From: an uncultured Candidatus Saccharibacteria bacterium
GTDB taxonomy: Bacteria; Patescibacteriota; CALEFQ01; G965231055
Assembly (NCBI GenBank): GCA_965231055.1
Contig: OZ246411.1
Coordinates: 48,334 to 112,333, forward strand
Direction of reading: 5' to 3'
DNA: 64,000 nucleotides
Shown one piece after another: positions 2,995 to 59,460 of this stretch (position 1 is the stretch's first letter; each line of letters opens with the position of its first letter). The notes under the pieces are model-generated. The model ran no database searches. It was not told the DNA's origin and worked only from the letters and a program-made list of their open reading frames with translations. The translations under genes were made by a program, and so were the position numbers.

Positions 2995-3017
2995 ATAATT
3001 GAATATGCAAATTTTTA

Positions 3018-3091
3018 TCAGCGAGATGCTCCCTGCCTCTACCTGTCGGTAGACAGGTGCCGGCAGGCAGATACCATTGAGCTATCGGGGA
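3018..3091 (-). pseudogene. truncated tRNA-Asn 5'-half pseudo-copy with 39-nt GC-rich palindromic insert in the D-loop
   Basis: TCCCCGATAGCTCAATGGTA + insert + GAGCATCTCGCTG, then diverges at the anticodon; no 3' half. Confidence 0.6.
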
Positions 3092-3100
3092 ATACGATAA

Positions 3101-6647: not shown

Positions 6648-6712
6648 GAGTATTCAGTATTAAGCATTCAGCGTTCAGTTGTGTTTGAATACTGATTACT
6701 GAAAACTGACTA
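6648..6712. repeat. AGTATTCAGT-type palindromic intergenic repeat R1
   Basis: words agtattcagtatt / tgaatactga / tactgaaaactga immediately 5' of dnaG start. Confidence 0.6.
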
Positions 6713-8815: not shown

Positions 8816-8831
8816 TTAATATTCACTGTCA

Positions 8832-8853
8832 CCTCTGCCTGTCGGTAGGCAAG
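8832..8853. repeat. 22-nt motif CCTCTGCCTGTCGGTAGGCAAG (18/22 identical to the insert in the tRNA-Asn pseudo-copy)
   Basis: direct comparison with 3036..3057. Confidence 0.4.
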
Positions 8854-8915
8854 CTGAACTTGTTTCAAGGTCTATGGAAAGGAGAGAAAATGAAAGTTAG
8901 AAACAAGGATCTTAA

Positions 8916-9325
8916 GTCGTCGTCTTCCCCGCGAATGCGGGGATCCAGACACCACGTATGACTAATTTTAGGAGGGATAAATGAATAAAAGCTATTATGT
9001 ATATATTTTAGCAAGTAAGCGTAATGGTACGCTCTATATTGGTATAACCAATGATTTAGCAAGAAGAGTGCTTGAGCATAAGGAAGGAAAAGGCTCTATA
9101 TTCACAAAAAAGCATAAAGTTAATATACTCGTATACTGTGAAACCCTATCAACTGCACATGATGCCATCTGTAGAGAAAAACAACTCAAGAAATGGAACT
9201 GAAGATGGAAACTAGAACTTATTGAGACACAAAATCCTTTCTGGAAAGATCTATCAAAAGAATACTTTGGATACTAAACCACGACGACTTCTGGGTCCCC
9301 AATCAAGTTGGGGATGACGACGGGA
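8916..9325 (+). mobile_element. GIY-YIG mini-element with hairpin-containing terminal inverted repeats
   Basis: left gtcgtcgtcttccccgcgaatgcgggga; right tccccaatcaagttggggatgacgacggg (inverted); inserted between ABC ATPase and permease. Confidence 0.6.
8981..9202 (+). pseudogene. GIY-YIG nuclease family protein, interrupted by in-frame TGA (family-typical C-terminus continues to 9277)
   Basis: YYVYILASKRNGTLYIGITNDLARRVLEH; after TGA the frame reads RWKLELIETQNPFWKDLSKEYFGY. Confidence 0.7.
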
Positions 9326-9426
9326 GCATAGGCCTTATCGTAATTAGATGGAATGACGACTGTTTCAAGAACTGTTCGCAAAAGAAAGACTCCTAGTTAA
9401 AAACAATAACAACATATTATAAATAT

Positions 9427-14884: not shown

Positions 14885-14933
14885 CCTTAGGCCAGACCCG
14901 AGGGGTCCCCCTTGGGGCTAAGCTACCCCCCGA
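14885..14933 (-). pseudogene. truncated tRNA-Pro 5' pseudo-copy with 22-nt GC-rich palindromic insert in the D-loop
   Basis: CGGGGGGTAGCTTAG + ccccaagggggacccctcgggt + CTGGCCTAAGG, then diverges. Confidence 0.55.
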
Positions 14934-19126: not shown

Positions 19127-19627
19127 TTATTGCGTCAATGAATCAGAAATTTTCATAGCCCACTCGGAAGCTTTATTTGAATTTACTTCTTTTGCTTTCA
19201 CATCATCTCTAGCATTTCTAAATCCCACCACATCCACAATCTCTGTATTGGGAATAGCTTTCGTAACTTTTTCTCGCAAATTTCCTAGCTCACTTTCATG
19301 AGAAGCAAAAACAGCCAGCTTTTTACCAGAGAAATCATATTTAGAAAAAAGAGTTTTAAATACTGGATTAAATCCACCTGCCCAAATCGGAGTACCCATT
19401 AAAATCATATCGTATTTTGAAATATCCAATTCAAAAGGCTTGAGCTCTGGCTTTTCATTGAAAAGCACTTGCTTGCCTCCCCAAAAATATTTGGCAAAAC
19501 CTTTTTTGCTTTTTGCATCATTTATTGCCTCTAATTCAATTTTATCCGCGCTAACTTTTCTAGCAATAGAGTCGGCTAATGCTCTAGTGTGTCCAGATAA
19601 TGAATAATAGATTACGAGTGTTTTCAT
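19127..19627 (-). CDS. flavodoxin-like fold protein (NAD(P)H-dependent oxidoreductase family)
   Basis: MKTLVIYYSLSGHTRALA flavodoxin FMN-binding loop. Confidence 0.7.
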   Translation of the reverse strand: MKTLVIYYSLSGHTRALADSIARKVSADKIELEAINDAKSKKGFAKYFWGGKQVLFNEKPELKPFELDISKYDMILMGTPIWAGGFNPVFKTLFSKYDFSGKKLAVFASHESELGNLREKVTKAIPNTEIVDVVGFRNARDDVKAKEVNSNKASEWAMKISDSLTQ

Positions 19628-19630
19628 ATG

Positions 19631-19692
19631 TGTTATTAGTATTCAATAATCAGTATTCATTATTCATGAAAACTGAACACTGATTACTAACT
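19631..19692. repeat. AGTATTCAGT-type palindromic intergenic repeat R2
   Basis: agtattcaataatcagtattca...gaaaactgaacactgattac 5' of the flavodoxin start. Confidence 0.55.
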
Positions 19693-27042: not shown

Positions 27043-27134
<92 letters not shown>

Positions 27135-27180
27135 ATGCTTAGGCATTAGAAGAACTAGAAGTTTCAGATGAGTTAGTATT
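27135..27180 (-). promoter_or_regulatory. conserved tRNA-Ser leader/promoter element (ATTAGAAGAACTAGAAGTTTCAGATGAG)
   Basis: about 85% identical 30-mer also 5' of tRNA-Ser-CGA (45575..45605). Confidence 0.5.
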
Positions 27181-28990: not shown

Positions 28991-28992
28991 AA

Positions 28993-29068
28993 TAAGTATT
29001 CAGTTTTCAGTATTAAGTGATCAGTGTTCATGAATATTAATCACTGACAACTGAATACTTAATACTTC
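28993..29068. repeat. AGTATTCAGT-type palindromic intergenic repeat R3 (centre catg)
   Basis: aagtattcagttttcagtattaagtgatcagtgttcatg / mirror image. Confidence 0.6.
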
Positions 29069-29154
29069 GTATTATACCAGAAAATCAACAAAGTATCTGC
29101 AATGGCTTGAAATCTTATCAGCTCCTTATTAAAAATTTAATCCGGTTTTTTATC

Positions 29155-45477: not shown

Positions 45478-45567
45478 TGGCGGAGAGGGTGGGATTTGAA
45501 CCCACGAAGCCCTTTCGAACTTACCGGTTTTCGAAACCGGCGCCTTCGACCACTCAGCCACCTCTCC
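45478..45567 (-). tRNA. tRNA-Ser (anticodon CGA), long variable arm
   Basis: GGAGAGG acceptor, anticodon stem CCGGT/ACCGG loop TTCGAAA, T-arm GGGTTCAAATCCC, CCA. Confidence 0.9.
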
Positions 45568-45649
45568 ATATTTTAGATATTAGAAGGAACAGAAGTTTTA
45601 GATGAATCAGGGCGTGAAATACAAGGCTTAATACTGCAACTTCTGTAAA

Positions 45650-48143: not shown

Positions 48144-48689
48144 TTATCGCATCCGCATTTTCAATTCCCATTTCACAAGATTATCCAAAATATATTGCTG
48201 AAATCGTGCATATTTATTTTGATTTCTGATAATGCGATCGTAATATGATTTTTGCCAGGCAAAATCTACGCCATTTAATTGTCGATGAATTTCGCGGGTT
48301 GTGGATGATTTGAATCCGTGAATGATTTTAGGCAAATGCATTTTGGTGCGATATTGATTATATGAATATTGCGATTGTAGGGAATGCAGATCTGCATTCC
48401 CTACAATCATTGCGGATATCATATCCGCATTTTCAATAATCAATATTCCATGAATATGATCGGGCATGATGATAAAATAACCCAAAACCACATTTTTGAA
48501 ATGAAATGGAATTGATCGCCAACATTCATTCGCAATTTTTCCGATTTGGAATAAAATTATTTTGCCATTTTTTATTTTACCCAAAACACGCTTGCGATCT
48601 TTGACACAAATCGTAATAAAATAATAACCTGGACTACTATAATCATATCTTTTTAATCTGATTGATTTACGATTGCGATATTTTTGCAT
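48144..48689 (-). CDS. RAYT/IS200-like HuH tyrosine transposase carrying an in-frame REP-like palindrome
   Basis: GYYFITICVKDR; HuH PDHIHGIL; catalytic WQKSYYDRII; about 25-aa insert encoded by GTAG-flanked palindrome 48373..48440. Confidence 0.7.
   Translation of the reverse strand: MQKYRNRKSIRLKRYDYSSPGYYFITICVKDRKRVLGKIKNGKIILFQIGKIANECWRSIPFHFKNVVLGYFIIMPDHIHGILIIENADMISAMIVGNADLHSLQSQYSYNQYRTKMHLPKIIHGFKSSTTREIHRQLNGVDFAWQKSYYDRIIRNQNKYARFQQYILDNLVKWELKMRMR
48373..48440. repeat. REP-like element: 34-bp perfect palindrome attGTAGggaatgcagatctgcattccCTACaat plus 19-bp palindrome tgcggatatcatatccgca
   Basis: read directly; lies inside the transposase CDS; 15-nt atccgcattttcaat repeated at 48151 and 48423. 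Confidence 0.7.
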
Positions 48690-50797: not shown

Positions 50798-50824
50798 TTA
50801 GCACTCCCCTGTCAAGAGTGCCAA
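50798..50824. promoter_or_regulatory. CIRCE operator (TTAGCACTC-N9-GAGTGCCAA)
   Basis: matches HrcA-binding CIRCE consensus about 100 nt upstream of groES. Confidence 0.75.
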
Positions 50825-50850
50825 AAATATTGTTTTTTGCTTCATTCTAT

Positions 50851-51843
50851 TTAGTTTTCTACTACTTTTTCATATTCCTTCAAAAACTTTTCTCTAAATT
50901 CTTCTCTTCTATCGTTTTCGTGAAATTTCAAAATCTTGTCGCATACGATCACATCAGTGTTGGGCTTGTCGCTTTTAGTTTTGTGCTCCCTGCTCATATA
51001 CTTTAGCTGCATTTTTTTCACCATTTTTTCGATTAGCCGACCAAAGCGCCCACCCAAAATATTTTCCCATATACTAGCTACCATTTTAGAAAAATTGGTG
51101 TCATCTACTCTTCTCCTGAAAGAAGGACTAAATCCATGAAATCTATAAAACCATCTCCCTATCCACAAATTTGCTTTTTGAAATTTTTTGTAAACCTTGC
51201 CACCTCTTTCATAAATCGGAGCCATAATAGCAATCCAGTTTATAAAATATGGATCATATGGTTTTTTTTGCAGATGTCTAAGATCCAAATATTTATCAGT
51301 CACAAAAAAACTCAAACATAGTTTATTTGATATTTTGAATCTTCTCCACTGTCCCTGAATAGCAAAAAGAAATGTGATAAAAAGTCTAGCCGTCCACATC
51401 CTACCATCCTTTACGATAATAAAAATATCTATATCACTTCTTTCGCTGATTGCATTGATGGGATTTGTATTACATAGCCCAACTAGCTTCACAAAAGGAA
51501 CAAATCTCAATTGTTTAGTCATTTTTACTGCTTTATCCCATCTTTTTATCGCGAGCAAATGCCTATCCCTTCTTGTTTGAATATTGCCTTCTCGATCTTT
51601 GAGAAAATAAAATCCATCCCTAGTTCTAAGTCTCTCTTTGAGCCAATCACTTTCATCAAGTGCCTTGTAAACATCCTCAAGGCTAACTTCAGATTTTCTA
51701 AACTCATCTTTAATCACCAATTCATTTGTGCCCGAGTCTATGCTCTGCAAAAATTTGTATATCTCAAGAACTGTCAGTGGGTATCTGAAAATATCGTAGA
51801 ACACGATGGTTGCCAATATGTCTTTTTCTATGTACGTAGACAT
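50851..51843 (-). CDS. hypothetical protein with minimal nucleotidyltransferase-fold motif
   Basis: VGLCNTNPINAISERSDIDIFII (G-x13-DxD) and later VTDKY acidic residue. Confidence 0.35.
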   Translation of the reverse strand: MSTYIEKDILATIVFYDIFRYPLTVLEIYKFLQSIDSGTNELVIKDEFRKSEVSLEDVYKALDESDWLKERLRTRDGFYFLKDREGNIQTRRDRHLLAIKRWDKAVKMTKQLRFVPFVKLVGLCNTNPINAISERSDIDIFIIVKDGRMWTARLFITFLFAIQGQWRRFKISNKLCLSFFVTDKYLDLRHLQKKPYDPYFINWIAIMAPIYERGGKVYKKFQKANLWIGRWFYRFHGFSPSFRRRVDDTNFSKMVASIWENILGGRFGRLIEKMVKKMQLKYMSREHKTKSDKPNTDVIVCDKILKFHENDRREEFREKFLKEYEKVVEN

Positions 51844-51844
51844 T

Positions 51845-52003
51845 TGATTAGAAGCATTAAAAGGACTAGGGATTAGATATTGGGTGTTAGGTTATGGGTT
51901 TTAGAAGTATTAAAGGATCTAGATGAACTAGAAATTAATCGGTTCTTATAATATCTTTGATGCTTCTAGGTTCACTAAAAACTTTAATCTATAACCTAAC
52001 ACC
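51845..52003. repeat. TTAGAAG/CTAGGG/TTAGAT word-repeat region containing a perfect 13-bp inverted repeat (51883..51895 / 51991..52003)
   Basis: ggtgttaggttat ... ataacctaacacc 95 bp apart; divergent intergenic spacer. Confidence 0.5.
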
Positions 52004-52090
52004 TCGCTCGTAGTGTAACAAGTAATACTACTAATTTTTTTGAACTTTATCAATAAAAATGCTATTATTCCTTATTAATCACAAAAAATT

Positions 52091-52738
52091 ATGTCCATAA
52101 AAAATAGTGAGTCAATGCCGAATAAGCAAGAACAAGAGCCACAAATAGACATCACGCAAAAAACTAAGGAGCTCGAAAAAGCATTAAAATCAAAAAAAAG
52201 CTTCACCCTGATAGAATTAGCATCGATAGCGTCGATACTTCTATGTCTCGGGGGCGTTGTTAAAGAAAGGTTTCCCAAAGTCAGAGGAGAAAACACAAAA
52301 CCAGAAATGTCCACCCCAAGTCAAGAAAAACCTAAACAAAAAATGTGGGAGGAAGATTTTCACACAAACGAACAAAAAAAATCTACTCGTGAAATTAAAT
52401 CAGAGCCGGAACAAAAAAGCGAAGAAGACAAACTTCAAGACGCGATCAAAATGTGCGTAGATGATTTTGAAAAAGGAGCATTCCGCCACAAAACAGAAAG
52501 TCCGGTAAGATGGATGATATTTGATGCAAGACAACCCAAAGAGGGCGAAACTCAAAGCAATTTTGAAATCAATTCGGCAAAAGAACAAATAACTGAAAAA
52601 ATAGACGGAATGATTGATGCAATGCGCACAGAAAAAAATGACGAAGAAGCTGACTACATGGAAGAACTGCGAGACAAGATCTCTGCATGCAATAGCGAGG
52701 AAGAATTAGCAAAACTACAATCCGAGCTTAAACGATAA
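52091..52738 (+). CDS. K/E-rich single-TM protein, hypothetical (possible retron-associated effector)
   Basis: TM FTLIELASIASILLCLGGVV then charged low-complexity tail; ends 70 nt before the retron-like ncRNA. Confidence 0.45.
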   Translation: MSIKNSESMPNKQEQEPQIDITQKTKELEKALKSKKSFTLIELASIASILLCLGGVVKERFPKVRGENTKPEMSTPSQEKPKQKMWEEDFHTNEQKKSTREIKSEPEQKSEEDKLQDAIKMCVDDFEKGAFRHKTESPVRWMIFDARQPKEGETQSNFEINSAKEQITEKIDGMIDAMRTEKNDEEADYMEELRDKISACNSEEELAKLQSELKR

Positions 52739-52807
52739 TCAAACAAATGAAGCAAAGCATTGACAATGCACCAAACAGTGCTATGTTTTTTGTATAAGTC
52801 GGTACAT

Positions 52808-52957
52808 CGGGGACTGGTATTGAAACCGAAAAGGATATCAAAAGATATCTCCGTTTACACAAGTAAGCGGAAGGGAAATCTACAAAGTGGATTTTCCACC
52901 AAAATCAAACTTTTCTATGTCCGACTATGCCAAGTGGGAAAACAAGTCCAGTCCCCG
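52808..52957 (+). ncRNA. retron-like msr/msd non-coding RNA candidate
   Basis: a1 cggggactgg (52808..52817) and a2 ccagtccccg (52948..52957) 10-bp inverted repeat; internal hairpins; 33 nt before the RT start. Confidence 0.45.
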
Positions 52958-52990
52958 CCCCCTTGGTATTAGGACAAAATAGGAGGAATT

Positions 52991-53860
52991 ATGGGTTCTT
53001 TAAAAAATAAATTTGGAAGTGATATCGAAAACCCTATGTTTTATCGCGAGACCATGTTACCCTTTTGCAAAAAGAATCGCACCATCAGTATCCAAAATCA
53101 AGAAATGAGGAAGCTTCAAAAAAGATTTGCAAAATATATTAGGCAAATCAAAAGTTGGAATGAAGAAAAGTCTGTTGTCGTAAATTTGATACTCCATTCA
53201 TATCAAGGAAGATTTTTCTATCTCACAGATATTTGCGATGCCTTTTCATCTGTAAAGCTAGATCGATTTTTGGGAGCTTTTTCAAGGGCGAGCCATAATC
53301 ATTGGAGTGATGCCAAAGAATTTCTGCAAATCTTTTTTTCCGAAAACGGAGAACTAATTACCGGAGGATCAGCATCTCCCGCAATCTTTAGCCTGTACTG
53401 TCACTTATTGCTAGATGTCGAAATCAGAAACGTAATTGAAAATCAACCAATACTGTACACGAGATATGTTGACAACCTAACATTTTCATCACCCAAAAGA
53501 ATTGGAGCTAAGACAAGAAAAGAAATAAGAAGAGCTATGGCAAAAGTTGGGTTTAGACCAAATCATGGTAAATCCAAAGTCCTCGACATAAAAAAGGGAC
53601 CAATAAATATCATGGGACTAAATATGGATGACTCGAGACAGGTATTTTTCCGCAGAGAAATGCTGGCAAAAATTCACGGACTCCTACATTCATACAAGTC
53701 TAGAAAAGATGTCCCAATCGAGGTGTTACTTGGTTATTACGGCATATTCAAAGATCTTTATATAAACCACAGCCACCGCGCAAAAACAACATCACTTTCA
53801 GAAAAAATCAAAGCTCAATTTCAAGAACTATTTTTACAAACACGAGGGGATTATTTTTGA
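52991..53860 (+). CDS. retron-type reverse transcriptase (YXDD box = YVDN)
   Basis: RT motifs KKNRTISIQNQEMRKLQ (1), NLILH (NAxxH), FYLTDICDAF (A), GGSASPAIFSLY (B'), YTRYVDNLTFSS (C), IMGLNM (VTG-like); SD aggagg. Confidence 0.75.
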   Translation: MGSLKNKFGSDIENPMFYRETMLPFCKKNRTISIQNQEMRKLQKRFAKYIRQIKSWNEEKSVVVNLILHSYQGRFFYLTDICDAFSSVKLDRFLGAFSRASHNHWSDAKEFLQIFFSENGELITGGSASPAIFSLYCHLLLDVEIRNVIENQPILYTRYVDNLTFSSPKRIGAKTRKEIRRAMAKVGFRPNHGKSKVLDIKKGPINIMGLNMDDSRQVFFRREMLAKIHGLLHSYKSRKDVPIEVLLGYYGIFKDLYINHSHRAKTTSLSEKIKAQFQELFLQTRGDYF

Positions 53861-53878
53861 TCCCCTTTTTTATTTTTT
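53846..53878 (+). terminator. rho-independent terminator of RT gene
   Basis: ggggattatttttgatcccc + T-run; a second minus-strand terminator follows at 53879..53911. Confidence 0.6.
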
Positions 53879-53925
53879 AAATAAAAAGACCCTCCAACTT
53901 TTGGAGGGTCTATATGGACTACTAT

Positions 53926-54228
53926 TTATTTAGCTGTGAACCACTTGATGCTGGTGATCAATGCCCATACCCAAGCGATCATCATTAGAGGGATTCCGAT
54001 AATCATTCCAATTATGGTCCAGATCAATACCCATCCTACCAAAGCTAGAACCAACTGGATAACTCCTGGCTTCATTTGCTTGGCAATAATTGTTCCAAGT
54101 CCAGGAAGAACTGCTATGTTGACGATCAAACCGACGATTTTCAAAGTCTGGTTTGGATCTGATGGCTGTGTGGCAGGTCCTGTTGGAGGAGTCTGCTGTG
54201 GAGCCGACTGCTGTGCTTGATTTTCCAT
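53926..54228 (-). CDS. small 2-TM membrane protein with Q/P-rich N-terminus
   Basis: MENQAQQSAPQQTPP + 2-3 TM; resembles the N-terminus of 47702..48061. Confidence 0.45.
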   Translation of the reverse strand: MENQAQQSAPQQTPPTGPATQPSDPNQTLKIVGLIVNIAVLPGLGTIIAKQMKPGVIQLVLALVGWVLIWTIIGMIIGIPLMMIAWVWALITSIKWFTAK

Positions 54229-54303
54229 TTATTTGGTTAATTAGTTTTTTAAATACTAAACTTATTTCGAATACGCCTTCGAAATATCAAAAAGATTATA
54301 TCA

Positions 54304-57171
54304 CTATCTTTTGGCGTCTGCAATTGCTTTTGCAAGATACTTAGAAGTGTACCCTTTTTTACTACTTACAATCTTTTCTGGGGTTCCTTCTGCGATAATG
54401 CTGCCTCCCCCTTCTCCACCCTCCATACCAAGATCGATAATATGATCTGCTGACTTTATTATATCCAATTGATGCTCGATCACCAATACAGAATTACCTT
54501 TATCAACTAATCTCTGAAGAACTTCCAACAGTCTTTTTATATCATCAAAATGAAGGCCAGTAGTCGGTTCATCTAGAATATAAAGAGTTTTTCCTGTATC
54601 TCTCCTAGAAAGCTCCGTGGCAAGCTTGATTCTCTGTGCTTCTCCCCCAGAAAGAGTGGTAGCTGGCTGTCCTATTTTTATATACCCAAGTCCCACGTCA
54701 AAAAGGGTTCTCAGCTTGCGTTTGATAAGCGGCACATTTCCAAAAAATCCCATCGCTTCTTCTACATTCATATCTAGCACATCTGATATTGTTTTTTCTT
54801 TGTAGTGAATATCTAGCGCCTCCTTGTTATACCTTTTTCCTTTGCACTCATCGCATTCTACATATATATCAGGTAAAAACTGCATTTCTATTTTTACAAA
54901 ACCATCTCCCTGACACGCTTCACATCTCCCGCCTTTTACATTGAAACTAAATCTGCCAGCTTTGTATCCACGCATTCTAGCTTCGGGAGTTTGTGCAAAT
55001 AAATCTCGTATAAAAGTAAATACACCTGTATATGTAGCTGGGTTTGATCTGGGACTTCTGCCTATGGGAGATTGATCTATGGTAACTACTTTGTCTATGT
55101 TTTCAATTCCAGAAATAGTTTTATGTTCTCCTGGAGCATCCTTTGCTCCGTAAAATTCTTTGGCCAAAACTTTTGACAAAATATCATGAATCAATGTTGA
55201 TTTGCCAGAACCCGAAACTCCGGTTACAGCAACTAGTTTACCCAAAGGAATTTTTGCATCTATATTTTTAAGATTGTTTTCTTTGGCTCCTTTGATAACA
55301 ATAAATTTACCATTGCCTTTTCTGCGTTTTTTGGGAACCTCGATAACTTCTTTTCCGGAAAGGTATTGACCGGTAAGTGATGTTTTTGATTTTTTGATTT
55401 GTTCAGGGGTACCCTCAAAAATAACTTCTCCTCCGTATTCTCCAGCGCCAGGACCAATATCTATAATATAATCAGCCTCCCTCATCATCTCTTCATCATG
55501 TTCAACTACAATAACAGTATTGCCCAAATCCTTTAGCCTTTTTAATGTATCTATTAATTTTTGGTTGTCCCTTTGGTGAAGTCCTATAGATGGCTCGTCC
55601 AAAATATAAAGCACTCCCGTGAGCCCTGATCCTATCTGAGTAGCAAGTCGGATTCTCTGCGCTTCTCCCCCAGCAAGAGTTGCCGATGCACGATTCAAAG
55701 TGAGATAAGCCACCCCCACATCTATCAAAAATTCGAGTCGGCTTTTTATTTCCTTCATCACCTGCTTTGCGATTTGCTTTTCTCTTTTTGAAAAAGTTGT
55801 TTCTGTTTGATTGAAAAATTCTATCGCTTCACCTATGTTCATAGCAGAAACCTCTGCGATATTTTTTTTGTTTAAAATAATACTGAGAGCTTCTTTTTTA
55901 AGTCTTGTTCCATTACATGAAGGACAGACGTAAGTCCTCATATATCTTTCTGTTTCTGTACGCACATAGTCCGAATCAGTTTCTTTGTATCTTCTTTCCA
56001 TTTGAGGAATAACTCCTTCAAAGTGAGTATTGAAGGTGCCAGAAAATCTATCAGTATCTGCTTCTATCACTATTTCTTTGTCCTTTGCGCCATACAAAAT
56101 CAAATCCATTGTTTTTTTGGAAAGCTTTGAGACTGGCGCATCCATAGAAAAATCAAACTCCTTGGCAAGAGCTTCCAAATGACGCATATACCAAGTAGGT
56201 TTGCCTTGGGTTCTGCTCCACGGTCTTATCGCTCCCTCGCGCAAACTCAATTTTTTATTGGGAATAACTAGGTCAGGATCTACTTCTAGTTTCAAACCCA
56301 AACCAGAGCATTCTGTGCAAGCGCCATGAGGGGAATTGAAAGAAAAAAGTCGTGGCTGTATTTCTGGAATAGAAATTCCGCACTTGGCGCAAGCGAAGTG
56401 CTCACTAATGGTTTTCTCTTCTTTGGTTTCAGGATCAAGCAAAATAATGATTCCATTACCAAAATCAAGAGCAGTTTCCACGGAATCAGCGATCCGCGAA
56501 CGATCAGGGTGTTCAGATATATCGCCCTCAAATTTTGAAATAATAATTCTATCAACCACAACATCTATAGAATGCTTTTTGTTTTTGTCCTTTTTCTTTT
56601 CTATGGCTTCATCTATTTCCATAACAGTTCCGTCCAATCTTATTCTGACAAAACCAGATTTTCTAATACCTTCCAAGGTGTCTTTATGTTCACCTTTTCT
56701 GTCTGTTACAACGGGAGCCATGACGATAAGTTTTTTTCCATCTTGCATTCCCAAAATACTATCCGTGATTTGAGTTGGGCTTTGGGATTTGATTTCTATT
56801 CCGCACTTGGGGCAATGAGGCTTCCCCACTCTAGCAAAAAGCAATCTTACATAATCATAAATTTCAGTAACAGTTCCTACGGTAGATCTTGGATTTTTTG
56901 AAGTGCTTTTTTGATCTATGGAAATCGCTGGAGAAAGTCCTTCGATCTGATCCACATCAGGTTTATCCATCAAACCCAAAAACTGCCTAGCATAAGCAGA
57001 CAATGATTCTACATATCTTCTTTGACCCTCGGCATAAATAGTATCAAAGGCGAGAGAGGATTTTCCCGAACCAGAAAGACCCGTGATCACCACGAGTTTA
57101 TCTCTAGGAATGTCTATATCAATATTTTTTAGGTTGTGCACCCTGGCACCTCTGATTTTTATTGATTTCAT
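54304..57171 (-). CDS. uvrA: excinuclease ABC subunit UvrA
   Basis: two ABC modules with zinc fingers, 955 aa. Confidence 0.95.
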
Positions 57172-57174
57172 TGA

Positions 57175-57285
57175 TTAGATGTATTAGTAGAACTAGAAGG
57201 ATTAGGAGAATTAGAACTACGTCATTACTGATACTTCTAATCCTACTAGTACTTCTAGCTCATCTAATAAGCAAGCTAATATTGT
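57175..57285. repeat. about 110-bp imperfect palindrome built from TTAGATG / TAGAACTAGAAGG / ATTAGGAG words
   Basis: left arm and reverse complement of right arm alignable; immediately 5' of uvrA start. Confidence 0.55.
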
Positions 57286-57326
57286 ACACTCGCAAAAGGA
57301 GCATGTCAACGATACGATCAGCAACC

Positions 57327-57466
57327 AGTTTTCAGTATTCAATAGCTCTCGGCAGCTGATTGCTAATTGCCAATAGCCGAATGAAAACTGAGTACTAAAT
57401 ACTGAACACTTAATACAAAAAAGACCCCCTAGATTAGGAGGTCTTGATGAAAACTGAATACTCAAT
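57327..57466. repeat. AGTATTCAGT-type intergenic repeat R4
   Basis: cagttttcagtattcaat ... gaaaactgagtactaaatactgaacacttaatac ... gaaaactgaatactc. Confidence 0.55.
57414..57444 (-). terminator. rho-independent terminator
   Basis: agaccccctagattaggaggtct + T6 on minus. Confidence 0.6.
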
Positions 57467-59460
57467 CTATCTCTTATAATATATCCCGTCATATTTTATA
57501 CCCGAAACATTTCCCATAGCATCTCGATACTGAGCGTAAACATATTTAGTGCCATTATTGGAATTGCCACCGTATGATGTTGAGGTAAGCTGCCACTTGG
57601 GATAGAGAGTTCTGTAAACCTTCCACCCAGTCCAACTCACACCATTGTTTGAAAATCTCATGAGCACTACTCCAGATAGCGAATCAGTTGAAGATGGCAA
57701 TAGATTTACATAGCTTGAATGGTTTGTTTGATCAGCATTCTCTATGGTGAGTGAACCCTTGGGTGGCGCTCTATCATAAATAATACTGTCGTATTTCTTA
57801 TTTGAAATATTACCTGCAGAATCTTTAAGTTGAGCATATACATATTTCTTTCCACTCTTGGCATTGCCACCGTATGCTGAAGTAACTAGATTCCAAGAAG
57901 CTTTTGATTGATAAGGAATCCAGGCTGACCAGTGTTTGCTGTCGCTTGAAAAACGCATGAGATGTGTACCTGAACTATATACACTAACTTTGATCCTCTT
58001 TGTTCCCGTGTACTGATCCCCCTTGTTTATTCTGATGAAGCCAGAGGGAGGTGTGTGATCGTAAATTATAGTATCTGATTTTGAAGAAGTGGTTCCTGCG
58101 ACATCTTTGTATTGCGCATAAACTCTCTTGGTTCCACTGTTGGAATTGCCACCATAACTAGAATTGGCCAAATTCCAATTATATGTAGAAGAATAGACTT
58201 TCCATCCGGTCCAATGAGAACCGTCATTTGAAAAGCGCATACGATATATTCCGCTTCCTGAGTTTCTCAAAGCCACGCTTGTGGAAGTGGTATATGTATT
58301 ACCCCCCTTTATAGTAATACCTGTACCTGAGAGAGCTGTATATCCAAAAGCATATTTTAGATCGCCATCGCCTTCATCATAATAGGAAATATGTGCGTTA
58401 CCATTTTCATCTATTGCGAGAGAGTTTGCACTTCCTACTTCAGTATTGCCATCAGCTACTTCATGGTACCAAGTTGAGCCTGATTTATACGAATAAAGAA
58501 GCAAACCACTATTAAATTCATAATAGGCTATTCTAGGATTACCATTTCCATCTAGGGCAATAGAATTATTCATACCATAACTTCCAGTATCATCACGCAC
58601 TGTCTCGAGAGACCAGTTCGTACCTGTCTTTTTAGCATATTTCAATTTTTCACTATCGTTATCGTGATATGAAACATGTACATTGCTATCGCAATCAATT
58701 GCAATTGAAGTTCCGAGCTGTATTGTTCCTGAATCGTCTATGGCTTCAAGAGTCCAAACTCCCCCAGTTAAATCTCCTGAGTGGGAAGCCAGTTTTACAT
58801 AGCCACTACTTACATCTATATAACTCATACGTGGCTGATTTGTATTATCATCTACTGCGATATCAATATAGTATCCGGTAGTAAAAATTGCATCTTCCAC
58901 AACCACTTTCAACCAACCACCCCCATATGGTCGATACATATATTTGAGACTATCATCGGTAGCGTCAAAGTAGCCAATATGCACTCCCCTATTTTCATCT
59001 ATCGCAATGGATGAAAAGCCTCCCACTTCAGCGTCATTGTCTATAGTTGTCACCTGCCAGTCTCCATCTTCATTGGAAGCGTATTTCAGGGAGCTATTGG
59101 TAGCATCAAAATAACTAATGGCGTAAATATCATTGTCTTCATCGTAAGCAATTCCAATATCCGTACCCACATCTCCTCCACTGTCCAAAATCTGAGTACT
59201 CCAAGTATCATCACCATTCTGGTAAGCATATTTCAAATCGCCACTAGTTTCATCTCTATATGCAATATGAGCAAGTCCGTTATTATCTAGCACGATAGAA
59301 GTATATCCCCCCTTGTCCCCAGCTGATTCTATGATTTCTCTTGACCAAGTTTTGGCCCACGTAGTTGCTCCAAAAGTCAATAAACCAAAGACAATTACTA
59401 TTACAAAAACTACGCCTTTTACAACGGGCGTTGGCTCTGCGAATAATGAATGGTTTTTCA
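57467..59460 (-). CDS. cell-surface repeat protein (beta-propeller-like LKYA repeats + three about 70-aa MRFSxxGxxWTGWKVY repeats)
   Basis: signal/TM; internal tandem repeats; start set to MKNHSLF. Confidence 0.55.

Follow-up and report, generated by a model that had tools for sequence, protein, structure and literature searches.

In the 64,000-nucleotide stretch of DNA analyzed here (the window; contig OZ246411.1 of assembly GCA_965231055.1, from an uncultured Candidatus Saccharibacteria bacterium), the long imperfect palindrome lying directly 5′ of the DNA repair gene uvrA consists of two facing arrays of a degenerate 9-bp unit that recurs at other gene boundaries of the same genome. We lean toward the explanation that these arrays belong to a lineage-specific, slippage-prone family of 9-bp repeats, and that the inverted pair at uvrA makes up the whole leader of that gene, where any effect it has would most likely be on the RNA, by way of stability, processing, or a blocked start site. 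Under this explanation, direct arrays of three to five degenerate units would grow, shrink, and turn over rapidly through gain and loss of units, and arrays that come to face each other would give rise to long imperfect palindromes. The inverted pair at uvrA would be transcribed as the entire 5′ leader and would fold into a hairpin of ∼95 nt. By analogy with known repeat leaders, such a 5′-terminal stem may alter mRNA stability or RNase III processing, may cover the region where translation begins, in a gene without a Shine–Dalgarno sequence, and could allow changes in unit number to tune uvrA expression.

The sequence-only reading had placed a 110-bp palindrome before uvrA. The palindrome is real, but it is ∼96 bp long (57174 to 57269), and the end at 57285 that had been given to it enters the −10 box of the uvrA promoter. 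It is built of five 9-bp units, a short center, and five inverted units, the consensus of the unit being ATTAGAAGT (31 units aligned, anchored on TAG), with A at every third base. The triplet TAG is spaced exactly 9 nt apart five times on the plus strand from 57176 and four times on the minus strand from 57266, and chains of TAG at any other spacing from 5 to 14 nt never exceed three in a row. A repeat search returned inverted arms of 38 to 41 nt with 78 to 80% complementarity in several registers. When the arms are paired in three registers 9 nt apart, they match at 75, 78, and 71%; several registers exist because each arm is itself a tandem array of five units. Over all combinations of a left and a right unit the match is 70%, and in-register pairs match at 76%. 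The equal pairing across registers indicates that the palindrome arises incidentally from the two facing arrays, with no sign of base-by-base tuning of one particular hairpin. For the same reason the exact loop depends on the register chosen, since the three are equally good. In the uvrA mRNA, the gene-proximal arm would be the pyrimidine-rich 3′ arm (…UCUACUAAUACAUCUAAU), which stops 2 nt short of the AUG, and the distal arm the purine-rich 5′ arm of the leader. Variation within the 31 units is uneven, T3, A4, and G5 (the TAG) and G8 being nearly fixed and positions 7 and 9 free (chi-square p ∼0.001), a contrast that is biased and partly built in because TAG anchored the alignment. At the palindrome, a target-site duplication is not evident beyond an ambiguous AT that belongs to the palindrome itself (no empty site was compared).

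Two ORFs (open reading frames) run over the palindrome, and both are probably spurious. A 65-aa frame on the plus strand (57162 to 57359) encodes an Arg-rich then Leu-rich peptide from the purine and pyrimidine arms, and a 91-aa frame on the minus strand (57217 to 57492), which the Logan annotation calls as a gene, crosses both terminator and promoter. Such frames arise because a 9-nt period equals three codons, so that purine and pyrimidine arms read as Arg-rich and Leu-rich peptides.

The order of signals on the minus strand is the intrinsic terminator of the gene upstream of uvrA, a sigma-70-type promoter, the palindrome, the dinucleotide CA, and the ATG of uvrA (Table 1). Given the terminator, uvrA would start its own transcript at this promoter, and given its place between promoter and ATG, the palindrome would be the transcribed 5′ leader. 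Only five promoter-like sites as good as this one are found on both strands of the window, that of groES being another of them. Transcription is predicted to start near 57274, at the foot of the hairpin, and we infer from the predicted promoter and the terminator that the palindrome would be transcribed as the whole leader. The leader RNA has a predicted folding energy of −35.1 kcal/mol (z −4.3), matched by 0 of 200 shuffled sequences, and the predicted hairpin of ∼95 nt begins a few nucleotides from the predicted 5′ end of the RNA and closes 2 nt before the AUG. No Shine–Dalgarno sequence precedes uvrA.

The unit is not confined to uvrA. The window has 37% G+C and carries its genes mostly on the minus strand; Logan contigs (∼23 kb, SRR10912416 and SRR10912417) match it base for base and extend it by ∼18 kb. 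We scored this DNA with a matrix made from the ten uvrA units only, applied as three units spaced 9 nt. The next-best matches after uvrA were at 27145 (27.0 bits), 45579 (23.1 bits), and 51847, 51900, and 51909 (13.8 to 17.2 bits), the best other site scoring 12.6 bits, and the same matrix applied at spacings of 6 to 8 and 10 to 12 nt gave nothing of 15 bits or more. The pattern YTAGNNGNNYTAGNNGNNYTAGNNG, with one mismatch allowed, has seven matches against 0.02 expected, and none of 100 shuffles contained as many. Both scans bear out the earlier proposal that shared words build the uvrA palindrome, the leaders of both tRNA-Ser genes, and the spacer 51845 to 52003. Besides uvrA, the window holds only three arrays, in the two tRNA-Ser leaders and in the spacer upstream of the gene at 50851 to 51843. 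Beyond the window but close to it, a fifth follows directly on the stop codon of trpS (19565 to 19625 of the extension contig, L203); it is on the same DNA strand as the other copies, in a 3′ untranslated region (UTR), and therefore in the opposite RNA sense. The genes beside arrays are unrelated in function: uvrA, two tRNA-Ser genes, a hypothetical gene, and the 3′ end of trpS. All 9-mer arrays are intergenic, and relaxed single units are 27% intergenic, compared with 11% of bases. The Logan assemblies of the two accessions, which come from the same study, stop ∼100 nt past the trpS array, inside a GC-rich repeat cluster (at L203 19719, ∼7.8 kb beyond the window end), so that any right-hand partner of the trpS array is unseen.

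As the sequence-only reading also supposed, the 9-mers form a second repeat family, separate from the AGTATTCAGT (AGTATTC) family, whose period is 7 nt. Tandem Repeats Finder (TRF) misses the 9-mer arrays because their units are only ∼70% alike. No Rfam family reached its gathering threshold, and in the region 51500 to 57600 only terminator-like noise appeared, at E values up to 5. The tetranucleotide CTAG is not depleted (1.08 times expectation), which gives no sign of restriction-driven avoidance. A relation to the CIRCE (controlling inverted repeat of chaperone expression) operator was considered and rejected, TTAG being the sole common feature and the real CIRCE lying upstream of groES.

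The two tRNA-Ser arrays, of three to four units each, have the same orientation and end 10 to 11 nt before the mature 5′ end of the tRNA. A block of ∼40 nt directly 5′ of the mature tRNA is common to both leaders, and upstream of this block the two leaders show no similarity. The array of tRNA-Ser-GGA (27045 to 27134) lies in the 59 nt that separate the tRNA gene from a methyltransferase gene, reads CAUCUGAAACUUCUAGUUCUUCUAAU in the RNA, and is predicted to be unstructured (z −0.6). At tRNA-Ser-CGA, an inverted unit, ACAGAAGTT, at 45638 to 45646 is predicted to be able to pair with the array (z −2.6). Neither spacer contains a sigma-70-type promoter, and a reading of these leaders as promoters was rejected on that ground.

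A strain comparison was possible at one of these loci. A 2.1-kb contig of ERR14653894 (locus L221), reached through a 99% identical homolog of the methyltransferase (P0241), shares 93.6% identity with the window across 1.7 kb of coding DNA, and its tRNA-Ser-GGA is 100% identical. Its spacer between the methyltransferase gene and tRNA-Ser-GGA measures 286 nt against 59 nt in the window and is not alignable as a whole. The leader of the intact L221 tRNA gene aligns with a 14-nt gap that removes the core CTTCTAGTTCTTCT. Upstream lies a second, disrupted 5′ half of tRNA-Ser-GGA that carries two GC-rich mini-insertions and the units CATCTAGTT CCGCTAATT, two where the window has three. Copy number thus differs between close strains at the single locus compared, and the loss of units together with the core-less leader of an intact tRNA gene means that the arrays gain and lose sequence in unit-sized steps over short times and that the tRNA can do without them; they are labile and dispensable. 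No tRNA-Ser genes were found in 46 loci of relatives. The tRNA-Ser leader pattern matches 14 metagenome stretches, which fall into four groups of near-identical sequences from AT-rich contigs and are apparently coding, and no tRNA 5′ end follows any of the 14. A four-unit degenerate pattern was discarded as a probe for sequence collections because it is too unspecific, with at least 120 stretches in viral contigs, many of them multicopy runs.

Table 1. Positions of the 9-mer arrays, of the uvrA signals, and of analogous arrays in relatives (window coordinates, except where an L number names another locus)
Feature	Position	Strand	Sequence or remark
uvrA, 955 aa	54304–57171	−	
Gene-proximal arm of palindrome	57174–57218	−	plus strand reads ATTAGATGT ATTAGTAGA ACTAGAAGG ATTAGGAGA ATTAGAACT
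Center or loop of palindrome (approximate)	57219–57224	−	ACGTCA
Distal arm of palindrome	57225–57269	−	minus strand reads ATTAGATGA GCTAGAAGT ACTAGTAGG ATTAGAAGT ATCAGTAAT
Sigma-70-type promoter, TTGACA-17-TACAAT	57281–57309	−	11/12 matches
Intrinsic terminator of gene upstream of uvrA	57421–57445	−	11-bp stem, then T-run
Array of 3–4 units 5′ of tRNA-Ser-GGA	27145–27180	−	plus strand ATTAGAAGA ACTAGAAGT TTCAGATGA GTTAGTATT
Array 5′ of tRNA-Ser-CGA (45478–45567)	45570–45605	−	
Array of 3–4 units before 330-aa gene (50851–51843)	51847–51880	−	plus strand ATTAGAAGC ATTAAAAGG ACTAGGG ATTAGATAT
Long hairpin, leader of 330-aa gene	51884–52003	−	perfect 13-bp closing stem GGTGTTAGGTTAT / ATAACCTAACACC
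Unit forms as repeats			(CUUCUAAU)n and (AUUAGAAG)n; CUUCUAAU is the pyrimidine-strand unit
Inverted 7–8 nt arrays, uvrA leaders	L026 2913–2994; L073 2907–2965 and 1809–1869; L045 2880–2965; L021 2895–2990; L013 2827–2918		
Inverted 7–8 nt arrays after trpS	L219 1077–1157		

The leader of the 330-aa gene, whose product matched no family, repeats the layout seen at uvrA: candidate minus-strand promoters (52053 to 52025 and 52115 to 52088), a hairpin, then units abutting the ATG, the array stopping 3 nt before it. The hairpin is 120 nt long, encloses inverted 9-mer units at 51900 to 51935 and 51955 to 51985, and has a predicted energy of −37 kcal/mol (z −4.75). The spacer 51845 to 52003 was also tried as a retron msr-msd RNA and rejected: it forms a single hairpin, it lies upstream of a plus-strand promoter (52040 to 52068), and a better candidate exists at 52808 to 52957.

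The genome belongs to the Patescibacteria, and its UvrA protein is encoded in identical form on an 843,892-bp NCBI contig and on the Logan contigs. No other sequence from 185,579 species-representative genomes or 5.8 billion clustered proteins exceeds 68 to 69% identity to it, the best matches belonging to Komeilibacteria- and Kerfeldbacteria-like assemblies, and none of the 5.8 billion proteins falls between 69 and 100% identity. For eight window proteins, the cluster contains this genome only. As to whether uvrA orthologs carry the palindrome, its sequence is not shared, the 80 uvrA loci from species-representative genomes (626 kb) having no 9-mer arrays, but analogous hairpin leaders made of short units do occur in several unrelated lineages of the Candidate Phyla Radiation (CPR). 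Short-period arrays, as detected by TRF, are common between the genes of CPR bacteria; most are made of heptamers, and many form inverted pairs. At L026, uvrA is preceded by a TTGATC-17-TATAAT promoter, five copies of TTAGAAA, a loop, and four TTTCTAA-type units, and the predicted stem (z −3.7) ends 4 nt before the ATG. Predicted hairpins built of repeats are likewise found in the uvrA leaders of L073 (8-mers TTTTAGAG / AAAATTCT, a repeat family that also precedes a second gene), L021 (CTTTCACA units), and L045, the z-scores of the four lying between −3.05 and −4.75. Each CPR lineage with inverted arrays has its own unit, and the hairpin-leader lineages are 55 to 65% identical in UvrA, except for the L045, L073, and L055 group (81 to 84%). 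When the count is limited to genes that have 100 nt or more of free DNA upstream, arrays lie within 100 nt upstream of 8 of 34 uvrA genes and of 6 of 95 other genes (Fisher p 0.0099), in a small sample whose loci were chosen through uvrA and in which several arrays are merely AT-rich. Besides the present genome, at least four CPR lineages thus have a uvrA leader with a predicted repeat hairpin. A general rule, that CPR bacteria repeatedly place a fast-evolving repeat hairpin of inverted 7- to 9-nt arrays, often with UUAGA/UCUAA cores, between a near-consensus promoter and the uvrA AUG, strikes us as a speculative proposal that will probably turn out to be wrong.

By analogy, the uvrA leader combines features of two described systems. 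In the Haemophilus influenzae gene hmw1A, an (ATCTTTC)n tract is transcribed in the 5′ UTR and forms a long hairpin that is cut by RNase III, and repeat number sets expression (Rapun-Araiz et al. 2025, PMC12721329). The uvrA leader resembles hmw1A and hmw2A in having tandem short units between promoter and start codon, in a leader-transcribed long hairpin of about ten repeats, which here is a predicted one, and in the instability of the repeat number. It differs in that the unit is 9 nt instead of 7, in that both arms are arrays of the same unit, whereas the second arm in the hmw genes is a nonrepeat G-rich segment, and in that the gene is a housekeeping repair gene and not a surface adhesin. 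RNase III cleavage and an effect on expression were demonstrated for hmw1A, whereas the present layout comes from sequence and a predicted fold. The other system is that of the TAACTGA heptamers of Beggiatoaceae, Cyanobacteria, and Bacteroidetes, arrays of which lie within a few nucleotides of the start codons of genes that lack Shine–Dalgarno sequences and show no functional pattern (MacGregor 2015, PMC4679880). As in those arrays, tandem units in a single orientation here run up to the start codon, over the place expected for a ribosome-binding site, ending 2 nt (uvrA) and 3 nt (330-aa gene) before the ATG on the same RNA strand; the downstream genes have neither Shine–Dalgarno sequences nor a functional pattern, and the family is restricted to a lineage. 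The unit ATTAGAAGT is 9 nt long and of different sequence, however, which makes the family an analog and not a member. Inverted partner arrays are frequent here, compared with one indirect repeat among 170 sets there, and some copies here precede tRNA genes or follow trpS. The ATACTGA units of the other family of the window are closer to TAACTGA in sequence than the 9-mers are.

Long simple-sequence repeats with units of 5 to 11 nt occur sporadically in bacteria, heptamers being the commonest (Mrazek et al. 2007, as summarized in PMC4679880). The 9-mer arrays, as head-to-tail copies of one such unit beyond chance expectation, belong to this broad class. The short tandemly repeated repetitive (STRR) heptamers of cyanobacteria are another known group of short tandem repeats. 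With both, the 9-mers share head-to-tail short units, a mostly intergenic location, a sporadic distribution across phyla, and evolution by slippage; they differ in that their units are degenerate (∼70% alike) where the others are near perfect, and in forming inverted array pairs at gene boundaries.

The AGTATTC heptamers likewise form inverted array pairs, at 6648 to 6709, 19628 to 19690, 28991 to 29070, and 57327 to 57466. Their gene-proximal arm (sense …ATACTGA ATACTC) ends at the ATG of dnaG, of a flavodoxin-like gene, and of an aminotransferase gene, all three without a Shine–Dalgarno sequence, and the sense unit (A/T)(A/T)ACTGA is close to the TAACTGA repeats of PMC4679880. In L221, TCAGTTT TCAGTTA TCAGTTT follows the stop codon of the methyltransferase gene. 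Shine–Dalgarno sequences are absent from all five protein genes in which a 7- or 9-mer array abuts the ATG. More generally, the window appears to have two classes of translation start, ∼10 genes having GGAGG or AGGAG at −8 to −12 and at least seven others (T)TAATC at −12 to −15; TAATC occurs within 30 nt upstream of the starts of 10 genes, with 1.9 expected. YTAATC is not enriched at start sites in the other CPR loci, and so is no general CPR start-site motif.

Several neighboring features deserve mention. The reverse transcriptase at 52991 to 53860 is of the retron type (PADLOC RT_III-A, II-A, and VI at E ∼1e-19; NCBIfam retron St85 below its cut-off). Directly 5′ of it lie a promoter, TTGACA-16-TATGTT (52760 to 52787), and a multibranch RNA at 52808 to 52957 that is closed by CGGGGACTGG / CCAGTCCCCG (given also as CGGGGACTGGTATTG / CAAGTCCAGTCCCCG), with a predicted energy of −70 kcal/mol (z −5.9). 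This RNA is probably the msr-msd of the retron, in which case the 70-aa ORF at 52760 to 52972 is probably not a gene, and the 215-aa gene at 52091 to 52738 may be the retron effector. Just downstream of groEL, on the minus strand, is a gene for a 181-aa IS200-like Y1 transposase that resembles the REP-associated tyrosine transposases (RAYT; REP, repetitive extragenic palindromic); the protein scores 28.4 bits against Pfam Y1_Tnp, above the cut-off, and 60.7 bits (E 1.4e-16) against NCBIfam REP_Tyr_transpos. No repeat family flanks this gene. A CIRCE-type operator, TTGGCACTC-N9-GAGTGCTAA on the minus strand (50806 to 50832), covers the −35 box of an 11/12 promoter ∼90 nt upstream of groES-groEL, and no HrcA-like gene was recognized near it. 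This AT-rich genome also contains small GC-rich palindromic elements (2995 to 3100, 8816 to 8980, 9203 to 9426, and 14885 to 14927; L203 19640 to 19719; L221 1895 to 1965), for example, CCCCAAGGGGGACCCCTCGGG, CCTGCCTGCCGGTCAGGCAGG, and the pair GTCGTCG…/…CGACGAC around a 73-aa GIY-YIG ORF (8981 to 9202). Two of them split the duplicated 5′ half of tRNA-Ser-GGA in L221. As candidates for REP or mini-mobile elements, they are better than the 9-mers.

The explanation that we favor has to be weighed against readings in which the units are recognized by a protein. In one, the pyrimidine-strand units (CUUCUAAU) would be RNA sites bound by S1 or a cold-shock-domain protein, for Shine–Dalgarno-independent initiation or for processing, with the upstream purine arm as a built-in sequestering strand. 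All four window copies do present the same strand in RNA directly 5′ of a functional start, the array-carrying genes have no Shine–Dalgarno sequence, YTAATC is enriched fivefold at −12 to −15 among such genes of this genome, a like proposal has been made for the TAACTGA repeats (PMC4679880), and a cold-shock-domain gene lies 8 kb outside the window. The strand bias is, however, inseparable from the replication or gene-strand bias of the window, the trpS copy has the opposite RNA orientation in a 3′ UTR, tRNAs need no ribosome loading, and the intact tRNA of L221 manages without units; moreover, TAATC within the arrays sits at −6 or −7 and not in its usual place at −12 to −15. We regard RNA recognition sites as unlikely, and slightly more so DNA operator arrays, in which a cooperative repressor, for example, a ribbon-helix-helix protein (compare omega heptads and MetJ boxes), would coat contiguous 9-bp units by the gene start. 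The contiguity, fixed period, and both orientations of the units, the near fixation of TAG and G8, the lack of register specificity in arm complementarity, and the adjacency of all four window copies to a gene 5′ end would suit such a repressor. The downstream genes are functionally incoherent, though (uvrA, two tRNA-Ser genes, a hypothetical gene, and the trpS 3′ end), the uvrA array lies downstream of its promoter, an intact tRNA-Ser-GGA gene has lost the array in a ∼94% identical strain, units and periods differ in relatives, and no small DNA-binding protein is encoded nearby among the 29 window proteins checked.

Spread as small mobile elements, of the REPIN (REP doublets forming hairpins) or miniature inverted-repeat transposable element (MITE) type, by the RAYT-like gene of the window (48144 to 48689) has only a slim chance of being right. 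REPs, bacterial interspersed mosaic elements (BIMEs), and REPINs (Di Nocera 2013, PMC3733652) are, like the 9-mer arrays, intergenic, hairpin-forming, often in inverted pairs, and often transcribed, which for the 9-mers is a prediction; the palindrome is REPIN-like in size and shape, and the copies are lineage-specific with fast turnover between strains. Against this, the NCBIfam score of the transposase is under the curated cut-off of 80, and the units are 9 nt long and not palindromic, unlike 20- to 40-nt palindromes, and bear no GTAG or CGTC head. The copies vary in unit number and order instead of being near identical, the arrays do not flank the transposase gene, a target-site duplication is not evident, and the GC-rich elements are the better REP candidates. 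Least credible of all, and very improbable in our view, is the proposal of the sequence-only reading that the element is a site for LexA or another DNA-damage regulator controlling uvrA. The gene uvrA is an SOS gene in many bacteria, the element lies upstream of it and has overall dyad symmetry, and L045 has a perfect TTAGAATATATTCTAA over the −10 box. An inverted pair TTAGA…TCTAA is present upstream of 5 of 75 uvrA genes and in 1% of background windows (p 0.001), an enrichment confounded by composition because the background is mostly coding DNA; these sites are not positionally conserved, and the L045 dyad is not kept in its 84% identical relative L073. The element itself is ten contiguous 9-mers over ∼96 bp, with internal periodicity, in place of a 14- to 20-bp dyad, and it comes after the promoter. 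Genes that have no part in repair or in the SOS response are flanked by the same units, the array is absent from 80 uvrA loci of relatives, and the tRNA-Ser-GGA copy differs by unit-sized indels in the ∼94% identical strain. A scan of 57150 to 57470 with eight known LexA-box types, the Patescibacteria motif of Sanchez-Osuna et al. 2017 not being among them, gave no exact match and, with one mismatch, only two weak matches to the loose Xylella pattern. No lexA gene was found among the ∼40 window genes scanned for families or the Pfam-annotated flanking genes, ∼82 kb in total. The uvrA element thus shows no sign of being a damage-regulator site, and that proposal is not supported.

Several observations also weigh against a slippage-prone repeat family acting, if at all, on RNA. 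The ∼82 kb examined are a narrow sample of an 844-kb genome, and the uvrA transcription start, the leader fold, and any RNase III cut are predictions. Because no hairpin forms from the tRNA-Ser arrays, hairpin formation cannot be the function that all copies have in common, and the same position and order of the two tRNA-Ser arrays are unexplained by random slippage. The uneven conservation within the unit could reflect a sequence-specific binder and not neutral slippage, and the excess of arrays upstream of uvrA genes in CPR genomes hints at a gene-specific constraint that purely neutral repeats do not predict.

Patescibacteria cannot be grown alone, and very little is known of their regulatory signals. 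If the arrays are only slippage-prone repeats, they still interrupt assemblies, give rise to false ORFs, and can be mistaken for operators. A functional hairpin at uvrA would place a core DNA repair gene under repeat-number-dependent control at the RNA level in a lineage with very few transcription factors, and would add a phylum to those in which repeat leaders of the TAACTGA and hmw type are known. Should the uvrA hairpins of CPR bacteria be under selection, they would provide posttranscriptional control of nucleotide-excision repair that might replace control by LexA, and changes in the number of repeats could turn repair capacity on or off or adjust it, so that uvrA would serve as a contingency locus for mutation rate.

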